Positions 38,160-56,577 are shown, counted from the first letter of the stretch. The stretch: DNA of 64,000 nt from Promethearchaeota archaeon (GCA_029838195.1 JALGVJ010000019.1:1-64000), one strand, 5' to 3'. Translations and numbers: made by a program. The notes: generated from the letters alone by a model not told the origin.

Positions 38160-38528
38160 ATGACATTAACAATAGATAGAACCTTGAAAGAATTGACCAG
38201 ACTCACGTTTTCACGAGAATATAATTATTTAGAGGGGCCTCATAAAATTAGGGGAAAATCAGGAAAAAAGTGGATTTTTGATGCCCTCATAAAAAATACT
38301 AATTCTGATAAATATGGGGTGTTTGTAAGAGATTGGAAAAGAGAAATTTCAATTACTCAGTTACGTCAATTACATAAAGCGTGTTTAGATACGAACATGA
38401 GTGGAGGCATTTTAGTGTGTAATTATATTTCCGAGTTTTCAAGGGACTATAGTAAACAATTTGGAATCCAGTTATTATCGAGGGGAGAAATGATTTCGAT
38501 TTTAAGGAATCGGCAAATTGAAATTTAA
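38160..38528 (+). CDS. Mrr-like PD-(D/E)XK domain protein, probably degenerate
   Basis: GKSGKKWIFD, VFVRDW, GGILVCN, FGIQLLS. Confidence 0.7.
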   Translation: MTLTIDRTLKELTRLTFSREYNYLEGPHKIRGKSGKKWIFDALIKNTNSDKYGVFVRDWKREISITQLRQLHKACLDTNMSGGILVCNYISEFSRDYSKQFGIQLLSRGEMISILRNRQIEI

Positions 38529-39674: not shown

Positions 39675-40766
39675 TCAAATCCCCTCCGTATGGGTCATGA
39701 GTAGCTTTATTTCTTCATTGGTAAATCGAGAATGCTTGAAAAGGTCGTGAAATTTAAAAGTCGCTTTATTTCTAATTTTATTAAATAATTTTATATCATT
39801 TACTTGAATGTCCTCTAAATTTGTGGTGCCTAATTTAAGCCGTCCAAGGTTTTGTATATAGGGACAAGCATCAAGTTTTAAATTAATGAGTGCGCAACTT
39901 AAAGCATCTAGAGCAACAGAATCAATAGAACATAATACGAGCTTTAAATTATTAATAGAACCTCGTAATGGACCATTTCCTTCCATTGCAGGAGCTGCAT
40001 CAATGACAGAAAAAATGGGAAAAATGGTCTTAGCCATTCTATTAATGTTGATAGCGAGAGCCGTTTTTGATGTTGTTAGATTGTCCTTTCTGGAAAGCAT
40101 GCTAGGATTTTTAGGGCCAAATCCATGCATGTAGGCCTTAACAACAGCACCTTCATCAATTATCTCCCCTGTTGACTTTCTACGTGCCTTTGAAAGACAT
40201 CCCATTAAATTCTTGACTGATAACGTCAACCCTAAGACATCATGAGATTTAAATTTAGCTACAGAAATAATGGGATACATGGTAGCAGTTTTTGAAATTC
40301 CTAATTCAATATCAAATGGATTTTCCGACCCCAAGGGATCTCCTGGCGAATAAATCTCAAACCAGCTTCCAACTTCATCTTTATTAAAATCAAGAGGCGT
40401 CCAAAGTTCCTCATCTAACATGAAACCGTTATTTTTCATTGCCTTAATGGAATCAGGCTCTCCTTTCGAATTATTAGTCGACCCTTCAGCTAATATAATA
40501 TTTTGAAATCCTAATTCTTTTAAATATTTTGCTAAAATCTCACATAATAGGGGGCTAGAAACAGGTAATCCATTATTGATCCGTTCGGTTGGTAAGATAT
40601 TGGGTTTAATGATGATTGTAGAAAACTGATTTAATATATTTTTAAAAAAATTTTCAAAATGGCTGAAGATCTTTCTTATATTCTTACTATTTTTATCAAT
40701 AGATTTTTTTATTTCTATTAAGTATATTTTAGAAGGCCGATATTGAGCAGCATTTTTCTCCATCAC
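39675..40766 (-). CDS. DUF362 domain protein
   Basis: IIKPN, AEGS, KFKSH...TLSVKNLMG, MEGNGP..G, DSVALD. Confidence 0.88.
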   Translation of the reverse strand: MMEKNAAQYRPSKIYLIEIKKSIDKNSKNIRKIFSHFENFFKNILNQFSTIIIKPNILPTERINNGLPVSSPLLCEILAKYLKELGFQNIILAEGSTNNSKGEPDSIKAMKNNGFMLDEELWTPLDFNKDEVGSWFEIYSPGDPLGSENPFDIELGISKTATMYPIISVAKFKSHDVLGLTLSVKNLMGCLSKARRKSTGEIIDEGAVVKAYMHGFGPKNPSMLSRKDNLTTSKTALAININRMAKTIFPIFSVIDAAPAMEGNGPLRGSINNLKLVLCSIDSVALDALSCALINLKLDACPYIQNLGRLKLGTTNLEDIQVNDIKLFNKIRNKATFKFHDLFKHSRFTNEEIKLLMTHTEGI

Positions 40767-40925
40767 GTTGGATCATAAATTAATTGATATTTTATATCTT
40801 TTATCCCCTTAAAGATATTTGTTAGAATATTTTAAACCATGAAAAGAAGTATTTTGATAGCTCTACTTTTATTAGTAGATCGGACCTCTTGCCATTGCCC
40901 AGTTCCCAAATATAGATCTAGTTAA

Positions 40926-40951
40926 ATAGATGAAAATGTGCGTTCATCTAT
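40926..40951. promoter_or_regulatory. Perfect 9-bp inverted repeat between divergent genes (possible operator)
   Basis: ATAGATGAA-N8-TTCATCTAT. Confidence 0.4.
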
Positions 40952-40999
40952 AAAATATCAGTTAAAAGTTTAAAAGGCATAATTTCTCTTTTTTTTATC

Positions 41000-42523
41000 A
41001 TGGAAATATATGACTTAGTTGTAATAGGGTCTGGTGTAGGGTTAACCGTTCTTAATTATGGGATACGATTTGGATGGAAGTGTTGTTTAGTAGAAAATAG
41101 CAAGGTTGGAGGGACGTGTCTCACGCGAGGATGCATTCCTTCAAAAATTTTAGTATATCCTGCAGATATCATAAGAGAAGCACAACACGCAAGAAAAGTG
41201 GGCGTTTCTTTTAAAATTGAAAACATAGATTGGAACTTAATTGCGAAAAGAATGTGGTCTCAAATTGATGAGAGTAAATCCATGGAAGAAGGATTGAAAA
41301 GCGTGCCAAATTTAGATTTTTTTAAAGGAAATGGGGAATTCGTGGGAGAATATGAAATGGTGGTAAGATCTGTGAAAGATCAATCCATAATTGCATCATT
41401 TATAGGAAAAAAATTCGTAATTGCATCAGGAGCTCGTTCTTTCATTCCGCTTATTAAAAATATTGAAGAAGTTGGATATGTCACGAATGAGAGTTTTTTT
41501 GGAGAGAAATTTCCAAAAAAGCCATGGAATAGTTTAATAATTATTGGAGGGGGGGTTATTGCTGCGGAATTTGCTCATGTATTTTCAGCAATGAATACAA
41601 AAGTATCAATAATTGAAATGCTACCTCGCCTGGTAGCAACGGAAGAGCCGGAAATAAGTGAAATTTTAGAAAATTATTTCAGAAAACACATGAACGTGTT
41701 GGTAAATCATAAAGCAATAGAAGTGGGAAAAAAAGGGAATAAAAAAATTGTCATCGTGGAAGATGTAAATACGGGAGAGAGGAAAGAAATCGAAGGAGAA
41801 GAAATCTTGGTCGCAACTGGCCGTAAATCCAATACCGATATTTTAAAAGTTGAAAAAACGGGGGTTGAAACTGATAAAAGAGGGTGGATTAAGACTGATG
41901 AATATCTTCAAACGACCAAGGAAAATATTTGGTGTATTGGAGATGCTAATGGTTTATATCAATTTCGGCATAAAGCAAATTATGAAGCGGAAATATGCAT
42001 TCGAAATATTTTTGGGAGTGAAGAAGATAAATCTACCGTAGATTATTCCTCTGTTCCTTGGGCAATTTTCAGTTATCCGCAAATTGGCCACGTGGGGATG
42101 ACAGAACAAGAAGCTTTGGAGAAAGGGCATGAAATTTATGTTGCTAAAAATAGATATTCTTCGGTGGCAAAAGGGTTTGCGATGGGATTTGAAGAGGGGA
42201 GTGAAGACGATGGATTAGTGAAATTAATTATTGATAAATCGTATAAAATTTTAGGGACTCACGTGGTTGGACCTCACGCAGCTATTCTTGTTCAGCCTTT
42301 TGCTTATTTAATGAATGCCGGATATACATGTAACATTCCGGAGAGAGAAGGTGAAGGAGAAGTTCCTAATATTAAAAGAGCATGTCCCGAAAGTGGTTCT
42401 TTCATGCCAATTTATCATTCTATGGTGATTCATCCTTCATTAAACGAGCTGACCGCTTGGGCAATTGGAAGCCTTCAACCCGTAAATATTAACCACGACC
42501 ATGCCCATGAACATCATCATTGA
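41000..42523 (+). CDS. Class I pyridine nucleotide-disulfide oxidoreductase (dihydrolipoamide dehydrogenase/mycothione reductase-like)
   Basis: VIGSG, GGTCLTRGCIPSK, GGGVIAAE, ATGR..N, IGD, HPSLNE; His-rich tail. Confidence 0.9.
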   Translation: MEIYDLVVIGSGVGLTVLNYGIRFGWKCCLVENSKVGGTCLTRGCIPSKILVYPADIIREAQHARKVGVSFKIENIDWNLIAKRMWSQIDESKSMEEGLKSVPNLDFFKGNGEFVGEYEMVVRSVKDQSIIASFIGKKFVIASGARSFIPLIKNIEEVGYVTNESFFGEKFPKKPWNSLIIIGGGVIAAEFAHVFSAMNTKVSIIEMLPRLVATEEPEISEILENYFRKHMNVLVNHKAIEVGKKGNKKIVIVEDVNTGERKEIEGEEILVATGRKSNTDILKVEKTGVETDKRGWIKTDEYLQTTKENIWCIGDANGLYQFRHKANYEAEICIRNIFGSEEDKSTVDYSSVPWAIFSYPQIGHVGMTEQEALEKGHEIYVAKNRYSSVAKGFAMGFEEGSEDDGLVKLIIDKSYKILGTHVVGPHAAILVQPFAYLMNAGYTCNIPEREGEGEVPNIKRACPESGSFMPIYHSMVIHPSLNELTAWAIGSLQPVNINHDHAHEHHH

Positions 42524-42896
42524 GTTGCGCATCGAATTTCTTGTATATTTTTTTATGCTTAATCCCTTTTTAAAATATGATTTTAGTTTTTTTATCTTAT
42601 TGAAATACTAAAGGAGGCTTTTAGGATTTTTTTATTTATCCGTGAACCCATTGACCAAAGTAGCGAGGGTTTAAGATTTAATAACAAATTTTTTAATTTG
42701 CACCAATTAGCGAAGATGTCTTATAAAGATTTAAAAATCTATCAATCTCTCATGTTTTAAATAAAATTGAACCTATTTTTAATCCTAAATTTTATTAATG
42801 GAAAGATATGATTTTTCTTCAATTTTTTTTTAAAATACTTCTTCATACTTAATATGGAATAAAAAAGATTAGCACTCATTATAAATTAAAAACCTC

Positions 42897-45800
42897 ATGA
42901 CCCTTACCAAAATGAAAAAAAATTTACGAAAATTTGATAAACAAGTATTAGCTCGTTACATGGAATCGGAATGTACGAGACAATTGTTTTTAGATCTCGG
43001 GCAAACCAATCCTCAAGCATGGTTTAAACCCGTAAGACCCCTAAAAAAGCCGAAAAGATTTTATAAGATGACAAATAATCTTGAAGAATTAGGCCATAGA
43101 TATGAACAAAAAGTTTATTTTTTAATAAAACATCTCTTCAAGAACGTGCGGTGTTCGATAAGTAAAGGAGGAAAAGTGTCTAATATTATTTTAGATTCTA
43201 ACTATTTAACAAATCTACACGATCAGCTCTTAAGGAATAAACGCGATATTTGGCTTTTAGAACACGAATATGAAAATCCTCCCGAATTTTTCCGTGAACT
43301 TTTTTCAATTACTAATCCTCATGATCCGATTCCGCTTGATTTTTCTGATCAACGGCCTGATATCATGATTATCGGTAATGGGATAAATGTTTTTTTGAAC
43401 GAAATTAGAGAACTTCTACCGGATGGGACAATACGCACCCTTCCGCAAGGGCAAATAGGAGAGCGCCAAGGAATTTCGGTTTTTGATATTAAAAATATAA
43501 GAGAAATAAAAATAGGAAAGAAACAATTTATTGAAGTCTTGTATTACATGCGAACCTTGGCGTATTTTATTTATAAATATAAATTAGAAGATAAATTTTA
43601 TGTTAGAGTAGATGGCAATGGGATCTTTCCTCACTTAAAAGATAAAGATTTATTTAGCATTAAAACTACAGCAGATTTTCTTGATCAAATAATCAAAATT
43701 CCTTGGGAGGAGTCAAATCGAATTTTTCATGATATCATGGAAGAAATCAGGGAATTATGGAATGATTGCCCCCAAGCCATTGAAGATGTACCGGTGAACG
43801 TCCAACTTAGTTGTGGATATTGTTATTTTTTAGAAGATTGTAAGGCAACTTTAGGAATGGATGGAGATACACCTCCTGAAAAATGGTCTTTAAAATTACT
43901 TCCCTATAATTCCATTTCCATCTCCGAACAACTCATGGAACGGGGTTTTAAAACAATCGGAGATATCGCAAAAAAAATATCGACTATTAGGATTGGAGAT
44001 ACTCCCGAGCCCATATATTCTGAATTGCCCCTTTTAGAACTTAAAGCAAATGCCCTTATTGAAAACACCTCAATTAAACCTAAATTGGGACAAATTCATT
44101 CTTATTCCATTCCAAAATATACGGATATCGCTTTAACCTTTGCTGTAGAAACAGATCCGGCAAACCAGCGCGTGTATGGTGCCTCTCTTTATTTATACAT
44201 GTCTGTTCCCCCTAATGCGCCATATAGTGCAATCTTTGACAATTGGTGGAGAATTTGGAAAGAGGGTTTAGAAAACTCAAAAAATGCATCGCAGATTCAT
44301 GCAGAACTTCAACCATATCTTTTTAATAAAATTTCCCTTAGATACGTGGAACTTTTCTATGATCATTTATTGAATTTGAAAAATATTTTGATATTTCCAA
44401 AAGGAATGTTGAAAAAGAATGGAACTCCACGCAAGCAAACGATAATTATTTATCAATATGCTATCGTTAATAAAAAAGAATCAGATAAAGAAGAGGTTGA
44501 ATTAGCAAGAAATCTCATCTATAAGATCAATACTATTTTGAGTTTTTGCAATATTATTGAAAATCATATTGTTGTGGAGGGCCAAAATCAAGGGGAATAT
44601 TTTGGACCAAGAACGAGTATTTTCTATTGGTCTGCCCGTCAACTCAATAATTTCCAAGACATGCTAGAAAGATCCTTAGAAAATCTCGTCAATCATCCTC
44701 GAGATGCAGCGATGTTCGAATCTATTTTATCCTTATTTACTCCTTCTGATTCGGAGGTAAAGCATCCCTACCAACACAAGAAGTTATTCAATGTACGTAC
44801 TTTTGCTGAAACGATATTTGGTTTTCCCTCTATTATTTCTTATACGTGGCACGAGATTGCAAAAAAAGAATTGAATCGACCATCTCATCCAAAATTTTGG
44901 ATTCCACATTTTAATTACATGGACTTCAATTCATGGCATGAATACCTTTTAGAGAACAGAAGGAAAGTCAAGAGAGAATTAGAACGAGAAATCAAGCTGC
45001 AATTAATCCATAAAGTTCGAACGATAAATGATTTACGAATATATCTCCAGAGAAGAGGAGGAGAGATGATTTCAAAACATTCTCGAACAATTAGCGATTC
45101 AAAAATTCAAGAAGTATTATTGCCGAATAGCTTCCATCCCATCGCTTTTGTTTGGTATTTATTTTCTAAATATACTGGAACCATGGATGAGTTAGAAGCA
45201 GACATTTATCGAACTATTTATCCGGAGTATAGCATAGGAAAATTAGTTGCCGCAAGGGTTAAACACCTAAAATTTAATTGGGATCTTGAAGGCAAACTTT
45301 TTTGTACATTTGCAATAATAGGCTTGTCCAGTAATATGAAAATTAACGAAGGGGATCGCGTGTATCTTCTTCCAGGTGAAGAACGCGGGAGAAAATCCGG
45401 ACTCTCCATGAGAAACTGCGAGATCACAATTGAAAAAATGGAGTGGACACCTAAATTAAATGGATATCAAATTTATTCAAAAAACCTAAACACCAAGTTT
45501 TATGAAAGATACATTGGTAATGAAACTAATCATGAATGGTTTTTATATCCAAGATCAATGGATAGCTGGTCTAAAAAATTATATGGCACCAATGGATTGT
45601 TATTAAGAGACAACATGGGACGATCTTGGTTGGGTGCCCGCTTATCTTACCTGTGGAACATTAGATCAAAACCCGTACTCTATTGGCCAAAAAAATGGAC
45701 TTTTACTGCTCCTTCAGTATATCTATTTGCCCCTGAACTATTGTTTCAATTAATTAGCAAGAAACATTTGAATATTAACCAAAATTTAATAACCAAAATA

Positions 45801-47393
45801 TCACCAACCCCAGATATTTCACAAAAAAAAGCAATTAATCACTCTTTGTTTTACCATATCTCGGGAATTCAAGGTCCTCCCGGAACGGGTAAATCGCAGA
45901 CAATCGCAGCATTGATTGATGAATATTACATGCGATGTAAGCAAAAAGGTCAAAAGTCAGTGAAAATATTAGTGACCGCCTTTTCTTATTCAGCATTGCG
46001 AGTAGTGATTGATAAAATTAGGACGAGTAAGAATCAAGATGAGATTCCAACTCCTTCCTCAAAAATGCAAATGATTTTTTTAAGGTCTAATTATCAAAAG
46101 CCGGTAGAGCCTATAAGTGGAACTCGTCATGTTGATGATTTACAACGTAAATATAAGACTTGGAAATGGAATGGAAAATCAAACACCGTTACTCCAAATA
46201 AACCTTTAGAAAATTTATTAGAGGACGATTTTATTTTATTCGCTAATGCCCATCAATTACACTATTTACGTGAACGTGTTTCAGATACTTTTGCTTTCGA
46301 TTTAATTATTGTAGATGAAGCAAGTCAAGTTCCGGTAGATCATTTCATGGCTAGTTTACATTACATTCACAAGCATGCTTTCCACGTGATTAAACCCCTA
46401 ACAGCTCGGAATCCCAATCAGCGGGTTAAATCACCAGAAAACGTGGAGAAGCTTGAATTAGATCCAACTAAATCATATTATCCTTTAACTAAAATAGTAA
46501 TTGTGGGAGATTATAATCAATTACCTCCCGTACAACCCGTACAACCTCCAAAAAATCTAAAGAAAGTATTAGATAGCTTATTTGGATATTATGTCAAATC
46601 TCACGGAATACCTAATCGACAGCTCAAGGTAAATTATCGTTCAAACAAGGATATTGTAAATTACACGAGAATGTTGGGGATATATAGGAATTTAAAACCT
46701 CATCCGAAGAATGCATTAAGAACATTAGATGGAACCGTTTCTAATTTAAAGAAACCATGGTTAAGACAAGTACTAGATCCTAAAAAATCCATAGTTTCAC
46801 TAATTCATGATAAAAAATATGAGATTGGAGTGAGCGCTTTAGAGGCAAAATTAGTTGCTCAAATCACTATTGGATATTTTGATATGATTTCTCTGAAAAA
46901 CGAGGAAGAGGAGCAAATTTTTTGGAGTGAAAAGTTAGGTGTAGTGGCTCCGCATAACGCTCAAGGACGATTAATCATTCGAAATATTTATGAATGCATG
47001 ACAAATACAACTAATCCAAAAACGCATTTAGATCATTCAGAATTAATGCGTTATTTAAAAAACTCCATCTACTCCGTTGAAAAATTTCAAGGTTCTGATA
47101 GGGAACTAATCATCTCTTCTATTGGCATTTCAGACAGGGATCAACTAAACGCAGAAAGTGAATTCATCTATAATTTAAATAGATTTAACGTCCTCACATC
47201 CAGGGCAAAAGCTAAAATTATATTAATTTGCAGTAAGAAATTCTTAGATTTTATTCCTAATGAAAGGGAAGTTATGATTGAATCTGCAAAAATTAGAAAT
47301 TTTGCGTGCAATTTTTGTAATGTTAAGGATGTATTACATGTATTAGATGAAAAGAATCAGCCAATTGAAATTGAATTTAGATATAAAAAATAA
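42897..47393 (+). CDS. Dna2-like nuclease-helicase (Fe-S PD-(D/E)XK nuclease + HhH-like + inactive RNase H-like + SF1B helicase)
   Basis: C26...C306xxC309x5C315, RPD...DIK; GPPGTGKS, DEASQ, GDYNQLPP, NYRS, APHNAQ, VEKFQGSD, RFNVLTSRAK. Confidence 0.85.
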   Translation: MTLTKMKKNLRKFDKQVLARYMESECTRQLFLDLGQTNPQAWFKPVRPLKKPKRFYKMTNNLEELGHRYEQKVYFLIKHLFKNVRCSISKGGKVSNIILDSNYLTNLHDQLLRNKRDIWLLEHEYENPPEFFRELFSITNPHDPIPLDFSDQRPDIMIIGNGINVFLNEIRELLPDGTIRTLPQGQIGERQGISVFDIKNIREIKIGKKQFIEVLYYMRTLAYFIYKYKLEDKFYVRVDGNGIFPHLKDKDLFSIKTTADFLDQIIKIPWEESNRIFHDIMEEIRELWNDCPQAIEDVPVNVQLSCGYCYFLEDCKATLGMDGDTPPEKWSLKLLPYNSISISEQLMERGFKTIGDIAKKISTIRIGDTPEPIYSELPLLELKANALIENTSIKPKLGQIHSYSIPKYTDIALTFAVETDPANQRVYGASLYLYMSVPPNAPYSAIFDNWWRIWKEGLENSKNASQIHAELQPYLFNKISLRYVELFYDHLLNLKNILIFPKGMLKKNGTPRKQTIIIYQYAIVNKKESDKEEVELARNLIYKINTILSFCNIIENHIVVEGQNQGEYFGPRTSIFYWSARQLNNFQDMLERSLENLVNHPRDAAMFESILSLFTPSDSEVKHPYQHKKLFNVRTFAETIFGFPSIISYTWHEIAKKELNRPSHPKFWIPHFNYMDFNSWHEYLLENRRKVKRELEREIKLQLIHKVRTINDLRIYLQRRGGEMISKHSRTISDSKIQEVLLPNSFHPIAFVWYLFSKYTGTMDELEADIYRTIYPEYSIGKLVAARVKHLKFNWDLEGKLFCTFAIIGLSSNMKINEGDRVYLLPGEERGRKSGLSMRNCEITIEKMEWTPKLNGYQIYSKNLNTKFYERYIGNETNHEWFLYPRSMDSWSKKLYGTNGLLLRDNMGRSWLGARLSYLWNIRSKPVLYWPKKWTFTAPSVYLFAPELLFQLISKKHLNINQNLITKISPTPDISQKKAINHSLFYHISGIQGPPGTGKSQTIAALIDEYYMRCKQKGQKSVKILVTAFSYSALRVVIDKIRTSKNQDEIPTPSSKMQMIFLRSNYQKPVEPISGTRHVDDLQRKYKTWKWNGKSNTVTPNKPLENLLEDDFILFANAHQLHYLRERVSDTFAFDLIIVDEASQVPVDHFMASLHYIHKHAFHVIKPLTARNPNQRVKSPENVEKLELDPTKSYYPLTKIVIVGDYNQLPPVQPVQPPKNLKKVLDSLFGYYVKSHGIPNRQLKVNYRSNKDIVNYTRMLGIYRNLKPHPKNALRTLDGTVSNLKKPWLRQVLDPKKSIVSLIHDKKYEIGVSALEAKLVAQITIGYFDMISLKNEEEEQIFWSEKLGVVAPHNAQGRLIIRNIYECMTNTTNPKTHLDHSELMRYLKNSIYSVEKFQGSDRELIISSIGISDRDQLNAESEFIYNLNRFNVLTSRAKAKIILICSKKFLDFIPNEREVMIESAKIRNFACNFCNVKDVLHVLDEKNQPIEIEFRYKK

Positions 47394-47416
47394 GAGGTAA
47401 TGGAAGGCGAAAAAAC

Positions 47417-49048
47417 ATAGAACCTTTTAGCTTTATTCATGTTGCAGATTTGCATTTAGGTAAAAAACAATATAACTTAGAGATAAGATATAAAGATTAT
47501 TTTAACACGTTTCAACGCATATTATCAATAGCAGTTAAAAAAAACGTGGATTTCCTGTTAATTGCTGGTGATATATTTGATAACAGGAAAATAGATCCTT
47601 CAGTTTTGAGTGAAGTTTTTAATATCATTCAAAATTTTAAAAAAGAATGTTTAAAAAAATTAGATAGGGAAATTCCATTAATTTGTATCGAAGGAAACCA
47701 TGATAATCCTTTATCTTCTTCAAAATCATGGATGAGCTTCTTGGCCGATTTGAATCTAATAATTTTACTAGAAGGATATTATGATATATCCTCTCAGTCC
47801 ATCATCTTTCCTCCCTATTCTGAAAAGACTCGCAAGGGAGGATTCATTAAAATAAAAGATTGTTGCATTTATGGATTACCATTTTATGGGAGTTTCACTT
47901 ATAAACTTTTTCCTTCTATTCGTGCTGCCATCAAAGACTCGAAAGAATGCTTTAATATATTAATGATGCATTTCGGCATTAAGGGATATGATGAAATGAA
48001 ACCCGGGATTCCTTATGAAAAAGAATTGGAACTGTTAAGGGAGAAAGTTGATTATTTAGCGTTAGGTCATTATCACCGACATTATTCTCATCCTCCAAAA
48101 GAGCCTTGGATTTACAATCCCGGCAGTATTGAAATCAATACCACACGAGAATTATACGCATTTAGAAATAACAAATATGATGATAAAGCATGGAGAAGTG
48201 AAAGAGGAATTATCTTAGGAAAAATAATGGGAAAAGAACCTTATCAACAAGACTTTGATCTTATTGAATTTGATAATGGAGCCTTGAATGTAGATATGAT
48301 ACCTAATAGAAAATTTTTAACATTAGAACCTATCGACATCAGTCAATCGAATTCTTTTAAAGATGCAATCATTCTCATTAAAGAAAAATTAAAAAAATTA
48401 GTTCCTTTGAAAGAAAAAGGGAAAGAATTGCCAGATGAGGATTTAAATAAAATGATCATAGTTTTTTCCCTAAAAGGAGAAATCCCTTATTCTAGGATAG
48501 AAATTAATATGGGTGAATTAAGAAGAGAACTCTTAGAAACTTTTGATATTTTAGATGTAAGAATTTCAACAAAACGTTTGATATCTACCTTAGATTCGAT
48601 TGAATTATTTGATGAAGGGAAAACCATCAATGAATTAGAAAAAGAAATATTTCTTTCCATCATCGAGCAAAACCCAGATCATGCTCCAAAAAAGGAACAA
48701 ATTATGAATTTAATTGAGGATTTGAAGACAGAATTACTCCTTAAAAAACCGAATATAAAATATTTAAAACAGAAAGTAGAAGAATGGTCCAAATTAACAT
48801 ATAAACAATTTCATGAAATTAAATCTCCAAGGGATAAGTTAGGAGCGGAAAAGAAAGAAATAGATAATTCAGATATCGATCTCGGAGAAATAGCCATGGA
48901 TTTTCCGGAAAGTGAAACAGAAATGAAAGAAGGGGAAGATTTAGAAAAAATTGAAGAGGAGGATTTCGAATTATATGAAGAGTTAGAAATTGATTTAGAT
49001 GATTTTATAGATGATGAGAGACGCAAAAATAAAGAAAAGGAGAAGTGA
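47417..49048 (+). CDS. mre11: Mre11/SbcD nuclease
   Basis: HVADLHLG, AGDIFD, EGNHD, MHFG, LGHYH, NPGS; acidic tail. Start lies upstream of the ORF-track TTG (see findings). Confidence 0.92.
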   Translation: MEPFSFIHVADLHLGKKQYNLEIRYKDYFNTFQRILSIAVKKNVDFLLIAGDIFDNRKIDPSVLSEVFNIIQNFKKECLKKLDREIPLICIEGNHDNPLSSSKSWMSFLADLNLIILLEGYYDISSQSIIFPPYSEKTRKGGFIKIKDCCIYGLPFYGSFTYKLFPSIRAAIKDSKECFNILMMHFGIKGYDEMKPGIPYEKELELLREKVDYLALGHYHRHYSHPPKEPWIYNPGSIEINTTRELYAFRNNKYDDKAWRSERGIILGKIMGKEPYQQDFDLIEFDNGALNVDMIPNRKFLTLEPIDISQSNSFKDAIILIKEKLKKLVPLKEKGKELPDEDLNKMIIVFSLKGEIPYSRIEINMGELRRELLETFDILDVRISTKRLISTLDSIELFDEGKTINELEKEIFLSIIEQNPDHAPKKEQIMNLIEDLKTELLLKKPNIKYLKQKVEEWSKLTYKQFHEIKSPRDKLGAEKKEIDNSDIDLGEIAMDFPESETEMKEGEDLEKIEEEDFELYEELEIDLDDFIDDERRKNKEKEK

Positions 49049-51762
49049 GATTCATGCTAATCAAGAGAATTGAATTAAAAAATATATCCACTCATGAGAA
49101 TACTGCTATCGACTTTGAAGAAGGTTTAAATATATTATTAGGACAAAATGGAACAGGAAAATCCACGATATTAAAAATGATAGGGTATGTTTTATTTGAT
49201 TACTTACCCGGTACTCAAATGTCATATGTACGAGCTGGTCGTGGTAAAAAGATTACCCATGGGGTAATAAAATTATGGATTGTTGGATTGAATGATGATC
49301 TCTATGTAATCGAAAGAACGATTGGGAAATCGAACAATACGGTAGAAGTTCGAGATGGACGTTTCGGATTACCCATTTCAAAAATAAATGATAAATTGAG
49401 TCTCCTAACGTGGTTAAGAACTCAATTCTCGCTAAAAGGAACAATTGATTTATCCACGCTTTTTGAAACTTCTATTGGGATTCCCCAAGGAACTTTTTGT
49501 GAGCCTTTTTTGCGCACGCCAGCTCAGAGGAGAAAATTTTTTAATCCCATTCTCCAAGTGGACGTTTATCGAAAAGTGTGGGAAAAACTACGTGAACTAT
49601 TGAAAGAATTCTCAGGAGAAATTGAAAAAACTGAGATATACATAGATACGCTAAGTGAAGTACTCATTAAAAGAGAGGATTTACTTAATGAAAACAAAAA
49701 AATTGAGCAAGAATTAAAAGAAAATAAAAAAGTATTGGAGGAATGTGAAAAAGAATTAGATAAAGTTAGCCAAGAAACGGATCAGCTAAAAAAAATCAAG
49801 GAAGAACGGGATAAATTAATTTCTGAGACCTCCCGATTGCATGTGAAAAAAGAAAGCCTCTTGAATTCCATCGATGAACTTAAAGGGCAAATAGAAGAGG
49901 CACGAAAAGCTCGTAAAATTTGTGAAGATACTAAAAAAGATCATTTAAAATATATGGCTTTAATAGAAAAACAAGAAAAGCTTGAAAAAAGATTTGAAGA
50001 ATTAGAAGTGAAGAAGAATAGGTATCAAGAATTAAGAGAGCAAGTAACAAGAATAAATGGTATTTTTACAGAAAAGGAAAAAGAAAAAAAAACTATTGAG
50101 AATTCGAAGGAGAAATTCATTAAATTAGAAAAAATCAAAGAAAAGGAAGAAAAAATAAACTCGGAAATTGAAAACATACGAAGTGAGCTTACACTAATTT
50201 CTACTTCAGAAAAACAATTATCAGAATTGCGGGAAAAATATAGTGAATTAAGTAAAGAAATATATAAACATGAAGAATTAATCCTTAAAGAAAAAGAATG
50301 GAAAGAAAATCTGGAAAAATTAAAACAATTTGAAAGAGAGCTCGAAAATTTAACAAGAGAAAAAATACTTCTTGAAGCTAATTTAAATCAGGTAAAAGAA
50401 TATGAAAATATTTCAAAAAATAACACATGTCCTTTTCTTAATGAACCTTGTAAAAACATACGAAAGACTCCCTTAGAGACAATTTTTCAAGAAAAAGTGG
50501 TGAAAATTAATGAGAGCATGCGTTTCGTGGACCAAAAAATTGATTCGATTAATGAAGATATCAAGAAACTAGAACCCATTCGAGAACAACTAGAGGAGCT
50601 GAAAAATATTAAAATTAGATATACCGAGATTAAAACACGAAGAGAAGAAATTATTGAAAGAATAAATGCTCAAAAAGAAATTGTGGACGAGAAAAAGTCC
50701 TTTCAAGAAAAATTAAATTCTCTTGAATCACAAAAAAAAGATCTTGAAGAACAGCTAAAAGAATATCATGTTTTAAAAAATTTAATAGAACATGAATTAC
50801 CTGCTATAATAAAAACATTAAAAGCTCTTGAAAAAGAAAGAGAGCCAATGACTAAAGAATTAGCTTCCTTAGAAAATCAATTAAAAGATTTTCAAACCCT
50901 TTCTTCTGAATTAATTAAAATCAAAAAAGTTTTACAAAAAACCAGAAGTAGGCATGAATTATACCAAAAAAATGAACAACTAGCAGCGAAATTAATCGAA
51001 TTTGAAGAAAGTTTAAAAAATAAAGAAAAGGAACACGAGAAATTGAAAACCTTACTCCACAATAAAATCGCTTTAAAAGAAGAATTCGATGTAAAATTTA
51101 ACGAAGTTAAATTTAAACAATTACAGGATAAAAAAGAAGAACTAATTGAAAGGAAAAGTATTTTAAAAACTACAATCGATAATCTCAAAAAAAACCAATC
51201 TAAAATCGAAGTAGAATTAAAAGAGTTGAACGAGAAAGAAGCGGAATTAAAAGAGTTTGAAAAAATTAGGGAATGGTATGGCTTTTTGGAAAAATTAATT
51301 GGAGACATGCGTACTTGGTTTAATGAAGCAGGTCCAAAGATAACAAAAGCTCTATTAAACCAAATTAATAACATGGCTTCCCAGATTTATCGAGAGCTCA
51401 TGAATGATGATTCTTTGAAACTGATTTGGGAAGAAGATTTTAATATCCTAATAATTTCTCCTGAAAATGAAAAATCCTACAATCAACTATCTGGAGGAGA
51501 GCAAATGGCAACGGCGTTAGCAGTGAGATTGGCAATACTAAAAACATTAACAAATATAGATTTTGCTTTTTTTGATGAACCTACGACAAATTTAGATTCA
51601 GAGAAAAGAATTAATTTAGCTCAATGCATTCAAAATTTAAAAGGGTTTAAACAACTTTTTGTAATTTCTCATGATGATACTTTTGAAGAAATTGCTGATA
51701 ACGTAATTAAATTCACAAAAGATCAGAATGAGATAACACGAGTTCAATTTTTTACAAAATAA
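49045..51762 (+). CDS. rad50: Rad50/SbcC SMC-like ATPase
   Basis: GQNGTGKST, IPQG Q-loop, long coiled coil with CPFLNEPC hook, LSGGE, FFDEPTTNLD, VISH. Overlaps the mre11 stop. Confidence 0.95.
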   Translation: MRFMLIKRIELKNISTHENTAIDFEEGLNILLGQNGTGKSTILKMIGYVLFDYLPGTQMSYVRAGRGKKITHGVIKLWIVGLNDDLYVIERTIGKSNNTVEVRDGRFGLPISKINDKLSLLTWLRTQFSLKGTIDLSTLFETSIGIPQGTFCEPFLRTPAQRRKFFNPILQVDVYRKVWEKLRELLKEFSGEIEKTEIYIDTLSEVLIKREDLLNENKKIEQELKENKKVLEECEKELDKVSQETDQLKKIKEERDKLISETSRLHVKKESLLNSIDELKGQIEEARKARKICEDTKKDHLKYMALIEKQEKLEKRFEELEVKKNRYQELREQVTRINGIFTEKEKEKKTIENSKEKFIKLEKIKEKEEKINSEIENIRSELTLISTSEKQLSELREKYSELSKEIYKHEELILKEKEWKENLEKLKQFERELENLTREKILLEANLNQVKEYENISKNNTCPFLNEPCKNIRKTPLETIFQEKVVKINESMRFVDQKIDSINEDIKKLEPIREQLEELKNIKIRYTEIKTRREEIIERINAQKEIVDEKKSFQEKLNSLESQKKDLEEQLKEYHVLKNLIEHELPAIIKTLKALEKEREPMTKELASLENQLKDFQTLSSELIKIKKVLQKTRSRHELYQKNEQLAAKLIEFEESLKNKEKEHEKLKTLLHNKIALKEEFDVKFNEVKFKQLQDKKEELIERKSILKTTIDNLKKNQSKIEVELKELNEKEAELKEFEKIREWYGFLEKLIGDMRTWFNEAGPKITKALLNQINNMASQIYRELMNDDSLKLIWEEDFNILIISPENEKSYNQLSGGEQMATALAVRLAILKTLTNIDFAFFDEPTTNLDSEKRINLAQCIQNLKGFKQLFVISHDDTFEEIADNVIKFTKDQNEITRVQFFTK

Positions 51763-51946
51763 TGTATTTAGCTCTTAAGTGGAAACTAGCGAACAGACAC
51801 TTCGATTAAGGAAAATTTATCGAGTTATAAGGGAGAATGGAATAGCTATTTCAAAATCAGATTGTAAAGATATTAGAATAAAAAATGACGCAAATATAAG
51901 GTAATAGAACTAAAATAAAAAAAGATATAATTAGATGCTTAATGTC

Positions 51947-52150
51947 CTATAAATCTTTAGCTTTTACGGTTTTTCTATTATTTGCTTTCGCTCGCTCAAC
52001 CGCTTTATCTAATATTCCCATAATAATCTGGTTCAATTGCCCCCCATCAAGTAATGCGGAGCTGGTATTTAGCCCTTTAGATTTAATATAATCTCTAATT
52101 TTTGATTTTACATACAAGGGTTCTACACTTTGCTTTTTCTTTTTTGCCAT
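51947..52150 (-). CDS. Histone-fold protein (short, no alpha3; Lys-rich N-terminus)
   Basis: VKSKIRDYIK, ILDKAVERAKANNRKTVKAKDL (RxTxxxxD). Confidence 0.85.
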   Translation of the reverse strand: MAKKKKQSVEPLYVKSKIRDYIKSKGLNTSSALLDGGQLNQIIMGILDKAVERAKANNRKTVKAKDL

Positions 52151-52578
52151 GGTTTTTTCTCCTCTTTTAATTCTTCTTATGATTACTTTTTAAGAATTTA
52201 TTTTTTAGATTTTATTATTTTAATATTTGACGACTTTCTTATTTAAATGTTTACTATTTAACTATGATTAAACTGGAAAAATACCTTTTTGTTTAGTAAT
52301 ATTACAAATTTTTTTCAATGAAAAAGAAGCTTAACTATTAAAACTCTAAAGAACTCATTTGAAATGAATTTCCGAACCAAACATGTTTAAATTTTTCAAG
52401 TTTAGAACTTATATTTTGTTAAAACGAAAGCAAGAAGCTATAAATTAATTTATTCCTACCAATATAATTATAATTCAAGGTTAAGGGTAATAAATTTATA
52501 AAAAAAAAGGAGTTATTTGGTATTGCGCATGTAATTGAAGAGAACGATCAACATTCTCTATAATCGTTTCCCTCACGT

Positions 52579-52857
52579 TTATTTGGGTGGGGATAATACG
52601 ATTTCAATGCTGGAAACGTTGTTGTTTTGTCCATTCTCTCCTTCTAATTGTTCAGTAGAAAGCCTGATCTCCTTATATTCCGTTCCTTTTAGAAATCGGT
52701 TCCTTAATATTTCACACACATCAACAGCGTGTGAAATAGCACGTCCTCGAGCTTTTATCGTGCATTCTTCGCCCTTATTTAAAATCATCATTGTTGCCAT
52801 TACATAATTCATAGTAGGCCTTCTTCCAACAAAAACAGCGTTTTCATCTTTCGACAT
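52579..52857 (-). CDS. albA: Alba DNA/RNA-binding protein
   Basis: VFVGRRPTMNYV, IKARGRAISHAVDV, VSSIEIVL. Confidence 0.97.
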   Translation of the reverse strand: MSKDENAVFVGRRPTMNYVMATMMILNKGEECTIKARGRAISHAVDVCEILRNRFLKGTEYKEIRLSTEQLEGENGQNNNVSSIEIVLSPPK

Positions 52858-53168
52858 AGTATATTACCTCTTTATGGTTGTTTTTTTGATATATTTCAGT
52901 ATATTTTAATTATTTGCTTTTAATTCCCTATTTCTTATAGTTTTGCGAATTATTGTAGGAATGTTTTTTCAGTTGTTTTACTGGTTGTTACATGTATAAT
53001 ATAGTGTCATTATCTAAAATAATCTTAGATAAGACATGAATAAAAAATTTTCTGAATTTATTAAATTTTATTGTAATCAGATACAAATAAATGCAATCTA
53101 TTTATTTTTTTTTTTTTCCTTGATATAATCCATCTTATAATTAAAGGAAAAAATTTTAGTGATTAGAA

Positions 53169-53184
53169 GCGAACTTTAGTTCGC
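53169..53184. other. Short palindrome next to a T11 tract (terminator-like or operator)
   Basis: GCGAACT-TT-AGTTCGC followed by a T run on the + strand. Confidence 0.3.
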
Positions 53185-53332
53185 AAGGATTTTTTTTTTT
53201 CAAAAATCAAATAATCGAAAAATTGCAAGAAATGAAAAACGAAGTAAATTCCAACCAATCCATCTAATTATCTTGTAAAAAGAGGTCCAAATTCCAAAGA
53301 ACATGATAGAGAAGCAATTGGATGAGAAGCTA

Positions 53333-54271
53333 TTAGAAATCAAAATCATCTGTTTCACTTTCGGGCTCTTCTTCTCCGTGCTCCTTCTTTTCTTTTTTAT
53401 GCACGACATTTTCCACCTCTTCGCTCGTGATCGCTTGCGTATGCTCGATTTCTAAATATTCATGTTTCTGTTTCTCTTTTAAAGCTACGCTCTCCCCTCT
53501 TTTTATTACTAATTCTTTTTCTACTTCCTCCCCCTCGTCTTCCTCTTTTTTAATGAAATCCCATACTATACTGATAACTAAGAGCAATGATAAAATGACT
53601 AAGAGAGGTATTAATAGTCCCGAATCAGTTAAAAATATTTTTACGTAGCCAATATAAGGAATTCTGCCAACCACGATACCAATAACATTTTCTTCAGGAA
53701 CCCACGCTGGATCTGGATAATTATTATTATCTCCTTTAGTTAAAAACCACCATCTCTGACCATCATGATATTTATCAATAACGCGATGGACAATGGGATC
53801 ATTAGGTGCTCCCGGCCACAACCCTCTTGGATCATAAACGATTACATCACCCGTCATGTCCTCTACCGTTCCCGCTTTAATCTGGGAGGGGTCGTCCACG
53901 CCTCGCAAAAATAAAAGATCTCCCACATGTATATTCGGCTCCATGGAGCGCGAAACCACTACAACCATTGGTGTAGGCGTATTTAGGGTAATTTGCAAGA
54001 TAAAATAGATTAAATACGAACCTGTAAATGCAAATATGAGGAGGAACGCCGAAACAATGATTTTTTTCTTATTCTCACCTTTAAGAAGTTGAGTTCTTTT
54101 CGAATGTTTTCGGAACATCGTGTTATTTTTTGAATTCTTTACGATAAAAGACGTCATTCGTAATTTATGGTCTTTATATCTTGATAAAGATATAAATTTT
54201 CCGATAAGGAAATTTTTAAAAGAGAAATATTGTAGAAATATAAAAAATTTTATCAGTAGCACGGGGTTCAA
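53333..54271 (-). CDS. sec11: Signal peptidase I (Sec11/S26B)
   Basis: VVVSRSMEP, GDLL, IVHRV, TKGDNN..D, IPYIG. True start likely the Met of MTSFIVK. Confidence 0.93.
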   Translation of the reverse strand: MNPVLLIKFFIFLQYFSFKNFLIGKFISLSRYKDHKLRMTSFIVKNSKNNTMFRKHSKRTQLLKGENKKKIIVSAFLLIFAFTGSYLIYFILQITLNTPTPMVVVVSRSMEPNIHVGDLLFLRGVDDPSQIKAGTVEDMTGDVIVYDPRGLWPGAPNDPIVHRVIDKYHDGQRWWFLTKGDNNNYPDPAWVPEENVIGIVVGRIPYIGYVKIFLTDSGLLIPLLVILSLLLVISIVWDFIKKEEDEGEEVEKELVIKRGESVALKEKQKHEYLEIEHTQAITSEEVENVVHKKEKKEHGEEEPESETDDFDF

Positions 54272-54349
54272 TTAGTATATTCAAATTAAAGTTTTTTTAC
54301 ATCCGCCATCTAATAGAAATGAGAGTAAATTAAATCTTTAAGGAGCCCT

Positions 54350-55150
54350 TTATTTAAACAACATTAAAATGGCCAGAAAAATTAAAAATATCATTACAAA
54401 AACTTGGAGTTTCTTTCCGGAAATCTTATTAGATACGTGAGCACCCATAATTGATCCAATGATGCCACCAATGCTTAAAATAATTCCAAGAATGAAATTA
54501 ATTTGCCCATACATCATCTTGATTATAGCGTTAAATAAAGCAGTAAAAAACACGATTGCAGTAGATGTAGCTGTAGAAAAATGGATGGGATATCCAACGA
54601 TGATGTTTAAAGCGGGGGTATTAATAACTCCCCCACCAATTCCTAAAAAATTTGCAACAAATCCCGAAAGAATAAAAAATGGAATTCCTCGTTTTAAATC
54701 TCTTTTAAGATCGTTATTATTTTCTTGTTGGTATGAGTTCTCATCTAGTTTATTTTCACGTGATTTTTGGAAATAATCTTTTAAAATTAAATTAATAGCA
54801 ATGACGATTAATAACGAAGAAAATATTATTTTTAATACAATACTCTCTAACGGATAAAATGAAAAAATAACGCTACTGATAAAACTGCCCAATATTGAAA
54901 AAATTGAGAAAATCATAGCAATTTTAAGATTACAGCGTTTTTGTTTTAAAAAAATGATTAAAGCAACGGAAGAAGTTATTAAAATAATTAATATCGAAGT
55001 GTCTATTGCTTCTTGGATCGCAATATTGAAAAAAACCGTTAATACAGGAACATTTATCGTACCTCCCGACGTTCCCGTGAGACTTGCTAAAAATCCTGAA
55101 ATGATACCGAATAAAAATAAAATAATAATGAGCTGCGTTGTAAACTCCAT
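54350..55150 (-). CDS. TauE/SafE-family sulfite exporter
   Basis: GTSGG..VP, GIGGGVINTP, ATS; about 8 TM. Confidence 0.9.
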   Translation of the reverse strand: MEFTTQLIIILFLFGIISGFLASLTGTSGGTINVPVLTVFFNIAIQEAIDTSILIILITSSVALIIFLKQKRCNLKIAMIFSIFSILGSFISSVIFSFYPLESIVLKIIFSSLLIVIAINLILKDYFQKSRENKLDENSYQQENNNDLKRDLKRGIPFFILSGFVANFLGIGGGVINTPALNIIVGYPIHFSTATSTAIVFFTALFNAIIKMMYGQINFILGIILSIGGIIGSIMGAHVSNKISGKKLQVFVMIFLIFLAILMLFK

Positions 55151-55410
55151 TGTAATGAAAAACGAGTGAAAATCTTTAGATAATTTAGTAAAAACTTTCT
55201 AAGAAATAAAGTTAATGATTTAGAATGCTCACTTGCCCGATACGACTTCTTGGGATCTCATCCGTCGCTTTATTTTTTTATTCATTTTTGAAAGCTAAAA
55301 ATCCTTTATTAGAATTCAATCTTATAAAAAAATTGAATTGCCGTCATCCAATATTAAAACATTTCCCTCTAAATATTTTAATAATAATTTAGGTCACTAA
55401 ATTTGAAGAA

Positions 55411-56577
55411 CTAAATGAAACCTCTTTTTGTTAGCTTATTTTTCGAAATCTCATTATTACCTTTTTTTCTACTCTTTTTGAAATAATAGGAAATTACTAT
55501 TAATGAAAAAATTCCTGCTAAAAAGCACATTAGAAGGAGTAAAGTCCCATGATATGGGATATAATATGGAAATTTCCAAGGTTTATATCCTTGATAACTT
55601 TTATTCAAGGGATATAAATAATTATTATAAAGAAATTGCTCCACCGTTTTTCCCGTAATTTCAAGACTCTTCTTGGAGATCGAAGTCAAATCATCCCTAG
55701 TTGTATGATGATAAGGCCAATCCGGATTATTCCAGAAATTTATGATAAGATCCACGGAGGGAATGCCCAATTCCAGGAAAGAATCGTGATCATCTATAAC
55801 TGAAGCAGAATTGGGATTTTCAGGAAAAACATCCGTAAAATCTAAACCTCGACCAATTTCAAAAATCTCTTCTAATAATGAAGGAGTAGATTTTTGTTCT
55901 TTAATAAATTGAAGATTAATCCCCCCGACCATGTCTAACAAAATCAAGCAATCAAAATATTCATGCTCGGGATTATGATACGCGTCAATATGTTCCGCAA
56001 AAATTTTAGATCCTTCGCACCAATCCCAACCCTCTATTCCAGGACTAACATCATATCCTTGATCTTCCGCATCAAAAAAAAGAAACCAAACTTGACATTC
56101 TAAATTTTTCTCCTTAATTTGCAATACTCGGGCTAATTCGAGCAAAACAGCACATCCGCTAGCGCCATCATTAGCTCCAGGTACAGGGGTTTTCTTGGCA
56201 AAATCATCCTTGGTAGCTCTTGCCCGTGTATCAAAGTGAGTGGCTAAAATCACGATATTTGGCTTTTGGGGATTCAATTTAAAGAGTAAGTTTCTACACG
56301 AGACATTATTAATAATAAATTCTTGGAAAATCGGATAATAATCGTCATCAATCTTATCAAATTCCCTAATAAAATAATTTAAACAACTCTTGGATTCTTT
56401 AGAACCGGGAATTCTCGGCCCCAGTTCAACCTGCCTTCTAACATGAACAAGAGCCTTTTGTCCCTCAAAAAGTAACTCTGCATCCACGTTTTGAACCAAA
56501 TCATGAGAAAAATTTATTGAATTGATGAACATAAAAATGATTAATAAATACGTGGATTTCTTTCGAAACCGTAGCAT
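55411..56577 (-). CDS. M28-family peptidase (glutaminyl-cyclase-like), secreted and C-terminally anchored
   Basis: GPRIPGS, HFDTR, GANDGASG, FFDAED, LLDMVG, DDH, HHTTRD; signal peptide and C-terminal TM. Confidence 0.88.
   Translation of the reverse strand: MLRFRKKSTYLLIIFMFINSINFSHDLVQNVDAELLFEGQKALVHVRRQVELGPRIPGSKESKSCLNYFIREFDKIDDDYYPIFQEFIINNVSCRNLLFKLNPQKPNIVILATHFDTRARATKDDFAKKTPVPGANDGASGCAVLLELARVLQIKEKNLECQVWFLFFDAEDQGYDVSPGIEGWDWCEGSKIFAEHIDAYHNPEHEYFDCLILLDMVGGINLQFIKEQKSTPSLLEEIFEIGRGLDFTDVFPENPNSASVIDDHDSFLELGIPSVDLIINFWNNPDWPYHHTTRDDLTSISKKSLEITGKTVEQFLYNNYLYPLNKSYQGYKPWKFPYYIPYHGTLLLLMCFLAGIFSLIVISYYFKKSRKKGNNEISKNKLTKRGFI

Follow-up and report, generated by a model that had tools for sequence, protein, structure and literature searches.

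In the textbook picture, NurA-HerA is the partner of the archaeal Mre11-Rad50 complex (MR), the corresponding enzymes being Dna2 or Exo1 in eukaryotes and RecBCD, AddAB or AdnAB in bacteria; eukaryotic Dna2 acts after MRN/MRX, partnering Mre11-Rad50 in end resection. Here we analyzed 64,000 nucleotides (nt; hereafter the window) from the genome of a Promethearchaeota archaeon (GCA_029838195.1 JALGVJ010000019.1:1-64000), in which positions 42,897-51,762 carry a gene for a protein of 1498 amino acids (aa) that combines two nuclease-type folds with a helicase, followed on the same strand by mre11 and rad50 (hereafter the triad). These three genes probably constitute one accessory module that processes DNA ends, by resection or by degradation, with the 1498-aa enzyme predicted to be coupled to MR. 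The module is best read as analogous to addBA-sbcDC of Bacillus subtilis, in which the putative addB-addA-sbcD-sbcC operon provides a precedent (PMC1533848).

Among the described systems, AddAB-SbcCD is the nearest, with MRN plus Dna2 as a looser analogue and NurA-HerA as the archaeal alternative. In both AddAB-SbcCD and the triad, the gene or genes of the helicase-nuclease lie directly upstream of an Mre11 and then a Rad50 homologue, in identical order (PMC1533848). In addition, AddB possesses the same class of iron-sulfur (Fe-S) 'staple' Cas4-type nuclease (Z 7.1 to our structural model), and there are two nucleases per motor machine. However, AddAB is a two-subunit superfamily 1A (SF1A, 3'-5') motor with two RecB-type nucleases, whereas the enzyme of the triad is one polypeptide with an Upf1-type superfamily 1B (SF1B) motor, one Cas4-type nuclease and one DEDD-type fold, and the two resemble each other in fold but not in sequence. 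With eukaryotic Dna2 (PF08696 plus SF1B helicase; PDB 5EAN) the protein has in common a Cas4-class nuclease with the pattern C...CxxCx5C, a barrel with a stalk, and an SF1B helicase, but it contains an extra helix-hairpin-helix (HhH) plus DEDD module of ~440 aa and lacks PF08696. NurA-HerA, the operon partner of archaeal mre11-rad50, likewise provides a motor and a nuclease for long-range resection and, in the taxonomic family of the archaeon, mostly occurs in other genomes than the triad; neither, however, is related to the 1498-aa protein, since HerA belongs to the hexameric ATPases of the FtsK type and NurA to the RNase-H-like nucleases.

Two further groups resemble the protein. TM0106-type nucleases (PF12705 or Cas4 plus PF13482 RNase_H_2) also pair an N-terminal Cas4-like nuclease with an RNase-H/DEDD fold, and clusters of this type were nearest to residues 1-790 by protein-language-model features (scores 0.92-0.95), but they are ~500-600 aa long, carry no helicase, and are linked to the protein by fold and model features only: TIGR03491, PF12705 and PF13482 did not match the 1498-aa protein even at E up to 10, and TIGR03491 matched neither residues 1-790 nor two homologues at this threshold. 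An alphaproteobacterial group named 'bifunctional RecB family nuclease/DEAD/DEAH box helicase' by NCBI (e.g., WP_133162272.1 and WP_213163959.1) has a similar length (~1390-1450 aa) and layout, including AAA_11/AAA_12, and its N-terminus matched positions 6-430 of our family profile (E ~1e-30 to 1e-47), but it is a distant, uncharacterised sister group. The original prediction, made from the window alone, had proposed a Dna2-like nuclease-helicase operonic with Mre11-Rad50 and had asked for a fold comparison with Dna2, Cas4/AddB and TM0106-type proteins; the Cas4-class fold was recovered, the TM0106-type model TIGR03491 was not, and neither the DEDD exonuclease fold nor the addB-addA-sbcD-sbcC analogue had been foreseen.

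The order of the three genes is conserved. We searched 79 related loci with the Mre11 and Rad50 of the window by tblastn, and counted gene order in the 38 loci that had a helicase gene of the MR-linked type (subfamily A) and at least 1 kb of downstream sequence. In 35 of these (40-68% helicase identity) helicase, mre11 and rad50 followed each other on one strand; in the others, mre11-rad50 lay upstream on the opposite strand (L041), was missing within 10 kb (L084), or the sequence ended after 669 nt. In a tree of full-length helicase genes, the MR-linked sequences formed a single Lokiarchaeial clade (support of 99 in the Shimodaira-Hasegawa-like approximate likelihood ratio test) in which L084 was the sole nested exception. 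Its sister was a second Lokiarchaeial paralogue without MR, followed by the Heimdall and Kari branches, with the bacterial clade separate (support 100). The expected adjacency of helicase and mre11-rad50 in relatives was therefore found, as was the Asgard origin (a Lokiarchaeial archaeon), and the triad is conserved through this Lokiarchaeial clade; it is not conserved across Asgard archaea and bacteria at large, where the helicase genes of Heimdallarchaeia, Myxococcota and, as it appears, Alphaproteobacteria have no such partners.

The family itself is broader. About 80 full-length homologues of roughly 1490 aa were collected from Promethearchaeota/Lokiarchaeia (including Promethearchaeum syntrophicum MK-D1, Lokiarchaeum ossiferum and Harpocratesius), from Heimdallarchaeota and Kariarchaeota, from Hermod-, Sigyn- and Hodarchaeales (by source names), and from Myxococcota-type metagenome-assembled genomes (28-41% identity). 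A profile of the N-terminal 970 residues retrieved 439 cluster representatives at E up to 1e-3, the alphaproteobacterial group among them, and the best 120 matches in a search with the helicase domain all belonged to the family. Contigs labelled Myxococcota or Bradymonadales, up to 431 kb long, carry full-length homologues that form a clade of their own (L046, L053, L056, L060-L062, L070, L072-L074, L079 and L081); one of these contigs, L053 ('Myxococcales'), falls within the Heimdall group instead, perhaps through mis-binning or a recent transfer.

As longest open reading frames (ORFs), the three co-oriented genes span 42897-47393 (+, 1498 aa), 47450-49048 (+) and 49045-51762 (+), in agreement with the arrangement predicted at the outset, but two of the starts had to be revised. 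For mre11, the start register was identical in all 12 relatives examined (ATG in 10, TTG and ATA in the other two), and the proteins of the closest relatives begin with M-E/Q/D-P, followed by the motif F-I/V-H-x-A/S-D-L/I-H-L-G. Exactly where their start codon aligns, the window reads ATA-GAA-CCT (position 47417), and the only in-frame ATG, GTG or TTG is the TTG at 47450, the use of which would remove the catalytic, first metal-binding Asp of 'ADLHLG'. Because of this loss and of the alignment of the relatives' starts, the true start of mre11 is probably ATA 47417, 23 nt past the helicase stop, and the gene would then extend over 47417-49048 (+, ~543 aa). A start by frameshift from ATG 47401 was considered and dropped, since ATA aligns with the ATG of the relatives. 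Homologues of rad50 begin M-[LI]-I-x-K-I, which matches ATG 49054, so that this gene most likely occupies 49054-51762 (+, 902 aa), leaving 5 nt between it and the mre11 stop. The 4-nt overlap of mre11 and rad50 is confined to the longest ORF of rad50; the genes nearly abut, as claimed in the original prediction, with mre11 within ~25 nt of the helicase stop at 47393, whereas the overlap claimed for rad50 is replaced by the short gap. The unit is preceded by a 373-nt AT-rich intergenic spacer without an ORF (42524-42896, +), which presumably contains its promoter, and the next downstream gene is convergent.

The 1498-aa protein (P0001; 42897-47393, +) consists, according to the structural models and motifs, of a four-Cys Cas4-type nuclease, an HhH linker, a DEDD exonuclease fold, a barrel with stalk and an SF1B helicase, in this order. 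Residues 1-970 had no match in Pfam, NCBIfam or PDB sequences, profiles included, and only fold comparison was informative. The N-terminal nuclease (residues 1-335; 42897-43901, +) is of the PD-(D/E)xK type, with E122, D155, D197-x-K199 and Y217, and contains cysteines at 26, 306, 309 and 315, the last three as C-x2-C-x5-C. C306, C309 and C315 were invariant and C26 was 94% conserved among 72 full-length homologues; in a 42-sequence alignment of Asgard and bacterial members C26, R28, E122, P154, D155, D197, K199, E213, Y217, C306, C309 and C315 were all invariant. The four-Cys pattern singled out at the outset is thus near-invariant, and these residues are candidate ligands of a 4Fe-4S cluster.

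An AlphaFold2 (AF2) model of residues 1-345, built from the 42-sequence alignment, had a predicted local distance difference test score (pLDDT) of 92.5. When it was compared with ~48,000 PDB representatives by VIA-align, the best matches were all nucleases of the Cas4/RecB class, and every match above Z 7 belonged to it: Cas4 7mi4_A (Z 10.2, 196 aligned residues), Cas4 8d3l_I (9.6), 3l0a (8.5), MGME1 (7.9), SSO0001 Cas4 (7.7), RecE (7.7), the nuclease domain of Dna2 (5ean_A, residues 124-419; 7.6), EXO5 (7.5), AdnAB (7.4) and AddB (7.1). By modelled fold and invariant motifs, the domain is therefore placed in the Cas4/AddB/Dna2/EXO5 class of PD-(D/E)xK nucleases, as had been proposed, and would be expected to be an active nuclease.

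The segment that follows was modelled separately (residues 346-970, pLDDT 86.5). It starts within a putative HhH-like linker (residues ~336-398; 43902-44090, +), suggested by helices in the model and by HHH_5/DUF4332 at the equivalent place in the distant homologue P0222. Residues ~408-770 (44118-45206, +) adopt a predicted fold of the DEDD/DnaQ-type 3'-5' exonucleases: all 50 VIA-align matches listed were DEDD-type exonuclease folds (Z 9.4-14.1), with exonuclease domains of family-B polymerases in the lead and 8d0b_F at the top (Z 14.1, 198 aligned residues, root-mean-square deviation 3.5). A candidate DEDDh-like site comprises the conserved E418-x-D420 (end of strand 1), E533, E555 and H671-x4-D676. 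The beta-barrel and stalk of the 1B/1C type found in Upf1, Sen1 and Dna2 (residues ~785-970; 45249-45806, +) close the middle part over ~190 residues; here Foldseek gave probabilities of 0.93-0.98 to Upf1, Sen1 and Dna2 over ~150-200 columns, and Foldseek alone returned no significant match for either AF2 model. The helicase core (residues 971-1498; 45807-47393, +) was recognized by profile matches in PDB and by AAA_11 and AAA_12 (residues 973-1447), the only Pfam domains on the whole protein. Its motifs are intact (GPPGTGKS, DEASQ, GDxNQLPP and the R-finger, motifs II and III being separated by an insert of ~60 aa), confirming the intact Upf1/Dna2-type SF1B helicase of the original prediction; by protein-language-model features this part resembles generic bacterial AAA_11/12 helicases, and from its SF1B type it would be expected to translocate 5' to 3'.

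The Mre11 of the triad retains all phosphoesterase motifs (DLH, GDIFD, GNHD, MMHFG and GHYHRH), the first only if translation starts at ATA 47417. It was matched by Metallophos in Pfam (49.6 bits), and its top NCBIfam matches were Mre11 models (84 bits, under the equivalog cut-offs); a long acidic extension forms the C-terminus. Where this 500-550-aa type of Mre11 was found, the genome also had the helicase or the gene lay at the end of a contig. Most genomes of the taxonomic family also contain a single copy of a ~400-aa Mre11-like phosphoesterase, 35-44% identical to that of the triad, which was rejected as the 'same' MR in triad-less genomes because no Rad50, HerA or NurA was found within 9 kb of it. 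Rad50 aligns end to end with the archaeal model NF003034 (195 bits; cut-off 700 bits), and its head is intact with Walker A, LSGGE, Walker B and H-loop. At the apex of its coiled coil (residues ~468-475, window 50446-50469) CPFLNEPC (C-x6-C) replaces the canonical CxxC, which we regard as a variant hook by its sequence; C-x6-C is kept across the Lokiarchaeial triad clade, and the Harpocratesius branch has the canonical CPVC or CPLC. The rad50 of the triad has, in two genera, an immediate downstream neighbour that encodes another Rad50/SMC-like protein of ~840-870 aa (G151:C1:31403-33874 and G274:C25:10469-12967).

The triad is an accessory module. The helicase family was detected in 51 of 400 Asgard genomes (12 of the 90 of high quality), in 26/134 genomes of the same taxonomic family, and in 2/54 and 8/42 genomes of two genera. 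No more than 49 of the family's 135 genomes had a Rad50 of any type (E up to 1e-25), and it was missing even from several that are 100% complete. Beside the triad, the genome of our archaeon (4.5 Mb, 96.6% complete) contains MR genes at two other loci. On contig 89 we found a canonical-looking nurA-herA-mre11-rad50 with a short, 698-aa Rad50 carrying a CPLC hook (L021, 92000-105000); a gene for a 625-aa protein (NERD plus UvrD-like helicase) flanks this locus upstream, and one for a DUF559-like protein flanks it downstream. Contig 87 holds genes for a 460-aa unknown protein, herA, mre11 and rad50 (1075 aa, without CxxC; L022, 26000-44000), a type of locus present in 6/135 genomes of the family. 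The genome also has, besides the MR loci, a nurA-herA-like pair followed by an HNH_4 protein, with a defence-like look. The claim that the module stands without HerA/NurA holds at the locus but not for the genome, and the presence of nurA-herA-mre11-rad50 elsewhere makes the triad an addition rather than the organism's only resection machinery. In the family, the triad was found in 28 genomes, Rad50 of the nurA-herA type in 44, and both in 3, against 9.1 expected; in one genus the two occurred in 11/42 and 13/42 genomes, respectively, with zero overlap. That the two loci seldom share a genome is suggestive of two interchangeable resection partners.

Could eukaryotic Dna2 have its orthologue, or even its direct ancestor, in the 1498-aa Asgard protein, which would make the partnership of MR and Dna2 older than eukaryotes? 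The outline shared with Dna2 (Fe-S-type Cas4-class nuclease, barrel with stalk, SF1B helicase) and automatic labels of homologues such as 'DNA2/NAM7 helicase-like' speak for it, and a 2025 paper reports that eukaryotic Dna2 and some Asgard homologues are related (PMC12680538). Nevertheless, PF08696 did not match the whole protein, nor residues 1-347 at E up to 10, nor anything else in the genome, while a 971-aa Asgard protein used as positive control scored 65.7 bits. In searches of PDB sequences mouse Dna2 scored below Upf1 (22.6 versus 25.9 bits), and with the family profile it was tied with IGHMBP2 and Upf1 (59.0, 61.8 and 61.0 bits, respectively). The nuclease domain is nearer to Cas4 than to Dna2 in the fold comparison, and between nuclease and barrel lie the HhH and a DEDD fold of ~360 aa, unlike the uninterrupted architecture of Dna2. 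A separate Asgard family of ~970-1130 aa, with PF08696 and/or PDDEXK_1 plus AAA_11/12, also exists. Its PF08696 plus AAA_11/12 members were present in 31/31, 10/12, 11/22 and 11/14 genomes of four taxonomic families, the 971-aa member matched mouse Dna2 at E=1.7e-64 (221 bits, versus 126 bits for IGHMBP2), and an MK-D1-like genome carries both the triad and a 1127-aa Dna2-like protein. Given the missing PF08696, the 22.6-bit score, the extra DEDD domain and this separate family, the protein was ruled out as Dna2 or its orthologue, and the Dna2 architecture initially assigned to it did not survive; a descent of Dna2 from it is highly improbable. The PF08696-positive Asgard proteins would more likely be the subject of the remark in PMC12680538. 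These Dna2-like proteins (L122:1987-4902, -, 971 aa; L121:2032-5415, -, 1127 aa) are universal in some Asgard families and absent from that of the window, and the one matched to mouse Dna2 at E=1.7e-64 also has a C-terminal RING-like match.

In the module we favor, Mre11-Rad50 would recognize and clip DNA ends, after which the 1498-aa enzyme would engage the end so opened and move 5' to 3' with its SF1B motor, its Cas4-type Fe-S nuclease degrading DNA while the DEDD-type domain possibly trims the other strand. Either long-range resection or outright degradation of the end might result, and the module would appear to substitute for NurA-HerA as the partner of Mre11-Rad50. We favor a module because of the gene order, the single MR-linked clade, the tight spacing, the intact motifs, the folds, the rare overlap with NurA-HerA and the addBA-sbcDC precedent. 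The end-resection module of the original prediction thus stays the best reading, without being the archaeon's only machinery of this kind. More speculatively, and rather less probably, the triad could represent a third archaeal machinery for long-range end resection, of a class not described before, that functionally takes the place of NurA-HerA in those Lokiarchaeia in which it occurs (MK-D1 and L. ossiferum among them), with one polypeptide (SF1B motor, 5'-strand Fe-S nuclease and 3'-5' exonuclease) docking on a dedicated Mre11-Rad50, perhaps by the long Mre11 tail. Our literature searches found no description of the module in Asgard archaea.

Several observations weigh against such a module, and some of them would suit other explanations. 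Most of the helicase family (Heimdallarchaeia, Kariarchaeota, the second Lokiarchaeial paralogue, Myxococcota and apparently Alphaproteobacteria) is without mre11-rad50, and no neighbour is conserved among these members; the enzyme can therefore do without MR. The helicase gene and mre11 are not adjacent in the cultured MK-D1, where an oxidoreductase-like gene (opposite strand) and a gene for a CitMHS transporter, both unrelated, lie between them; relatives of MK-D1 also have an insertion at this place. Together with the nested L084, these observations would fit a helicase-nuclease that acts independently of Mre11-Rad50, e.g., on flaps or forks or in nucleic-acid quality control, its adjacency to mre11 reflecting shared regulation only. 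We consider this unlikely, as the gene order holds over deep divergence in 35 loci, the long Mre11 type was encountered in genomes with the helicase or at the ends of contigs, and the genes nearly abut. Other points concern the proteins and the counts: the start position of mre11 in the window is occupied by ATA, which would mean near-cognate initiation, an error of the assembly, or a start that the gene is losing; a 3'-5' exonuclease activity of the modelled DEDD domain is uncertain, because its first motif is reversed, with E-x-D in place of the D-x-E that is normal in the family; and the p-value of 0.0035 for the co-occurrence of triad and nurA-herA-type Rad50 comes from a naive one-sided Fisher test that ignores the relatedness of the genomes.

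The patchy distribution, finally, fits defence genes equally well, and a system against viruses or plasmids, in which Rad50-Mre11 would sense foreign ends or unusual structures and the two-nuclease helicase would be the effector, is the rival we take most seriously, though we think it rather doubtful; the original prediction had already offered a defence system as its alternative. The module is patchy even within genera, the helicase family crosses between Asgard archaea and bacteria, some genomes hold paralogues, the genome of the window has three different MR-containing loci, and the many complete genomes of the family without Rad50 imply that MR is not housekeeping there. PADLOC matched models of the MkoA, DpdJ and LmuB type, but these matches were partial and covered only the generic cores of a helicase (MkoA, DpdJ) or an ABC ATPase (mad3, LmuB), and no PADLOC system was matched as a whole. 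The neighbours of the triad are metabolic genes, without integrase, restriction-modification or other defence genes except for one weak Mrr-like ORF of 122 aa; the nearest relative has collinear flanks, parts of which persist in more distant ones, and this counts against a mobile island; and the rarity of genomes with both the triad and the repair-type nurA-herA-mre11-rad50 suggests an equivalent role. RecBCD and AddAB serve both repair and defence, and the two readings may therefore not be exclusive. The DNA-end-processing module could act in recombinational repair, in the destruction of foreign linear DNA, or in both; patchiness and the spread across domains fit defence, whereas neighbours of the housekeeping type, a stable location and the rarity of genomes that also hold the NurA-HerA locus fit repair.

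Mre11-Rad50 thus has, in the Lokiarchaeial clade to which both examined cultured species belong, a conserved operon partner in the form of an uncharacterised helicase with two nuclease folds, and MR-based systems in these archaea would be interchangeable accessory modules, not fixed housekeeping genes. If the enzyme resects ends, an Fe-S nuclease fused to an SF1B motor and working with MR would be a solution reached separately from Dna2 among the archaeal relatives of eukaryotes. Separating the 1498-aa family from the true Asgard homologues of Dna2 matters for tracing the origins of eukaryotic repair proteins.

No Rfam family was matched in window positions 40000-56000. Two genes converge on the end of rad50, one for a 67-aa basic protein (51947-52150, -) and one for the chromatin protein Alba (52579-52857, -). 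The 122-aa ORF (38160-38528, +), with weak matches to Mrr_cat and inactive restriction endonucleases, is the sole defence-flavoured gene near the triad. Elsewhere in the genome, contig 89 encodes a 1515-aa protein (L107:5157-9704) with DUF4011, an SF1 helicase, an MTES_1575 endonuclease and DUF3320, the layout of Hhe-type anti-phage helicases.

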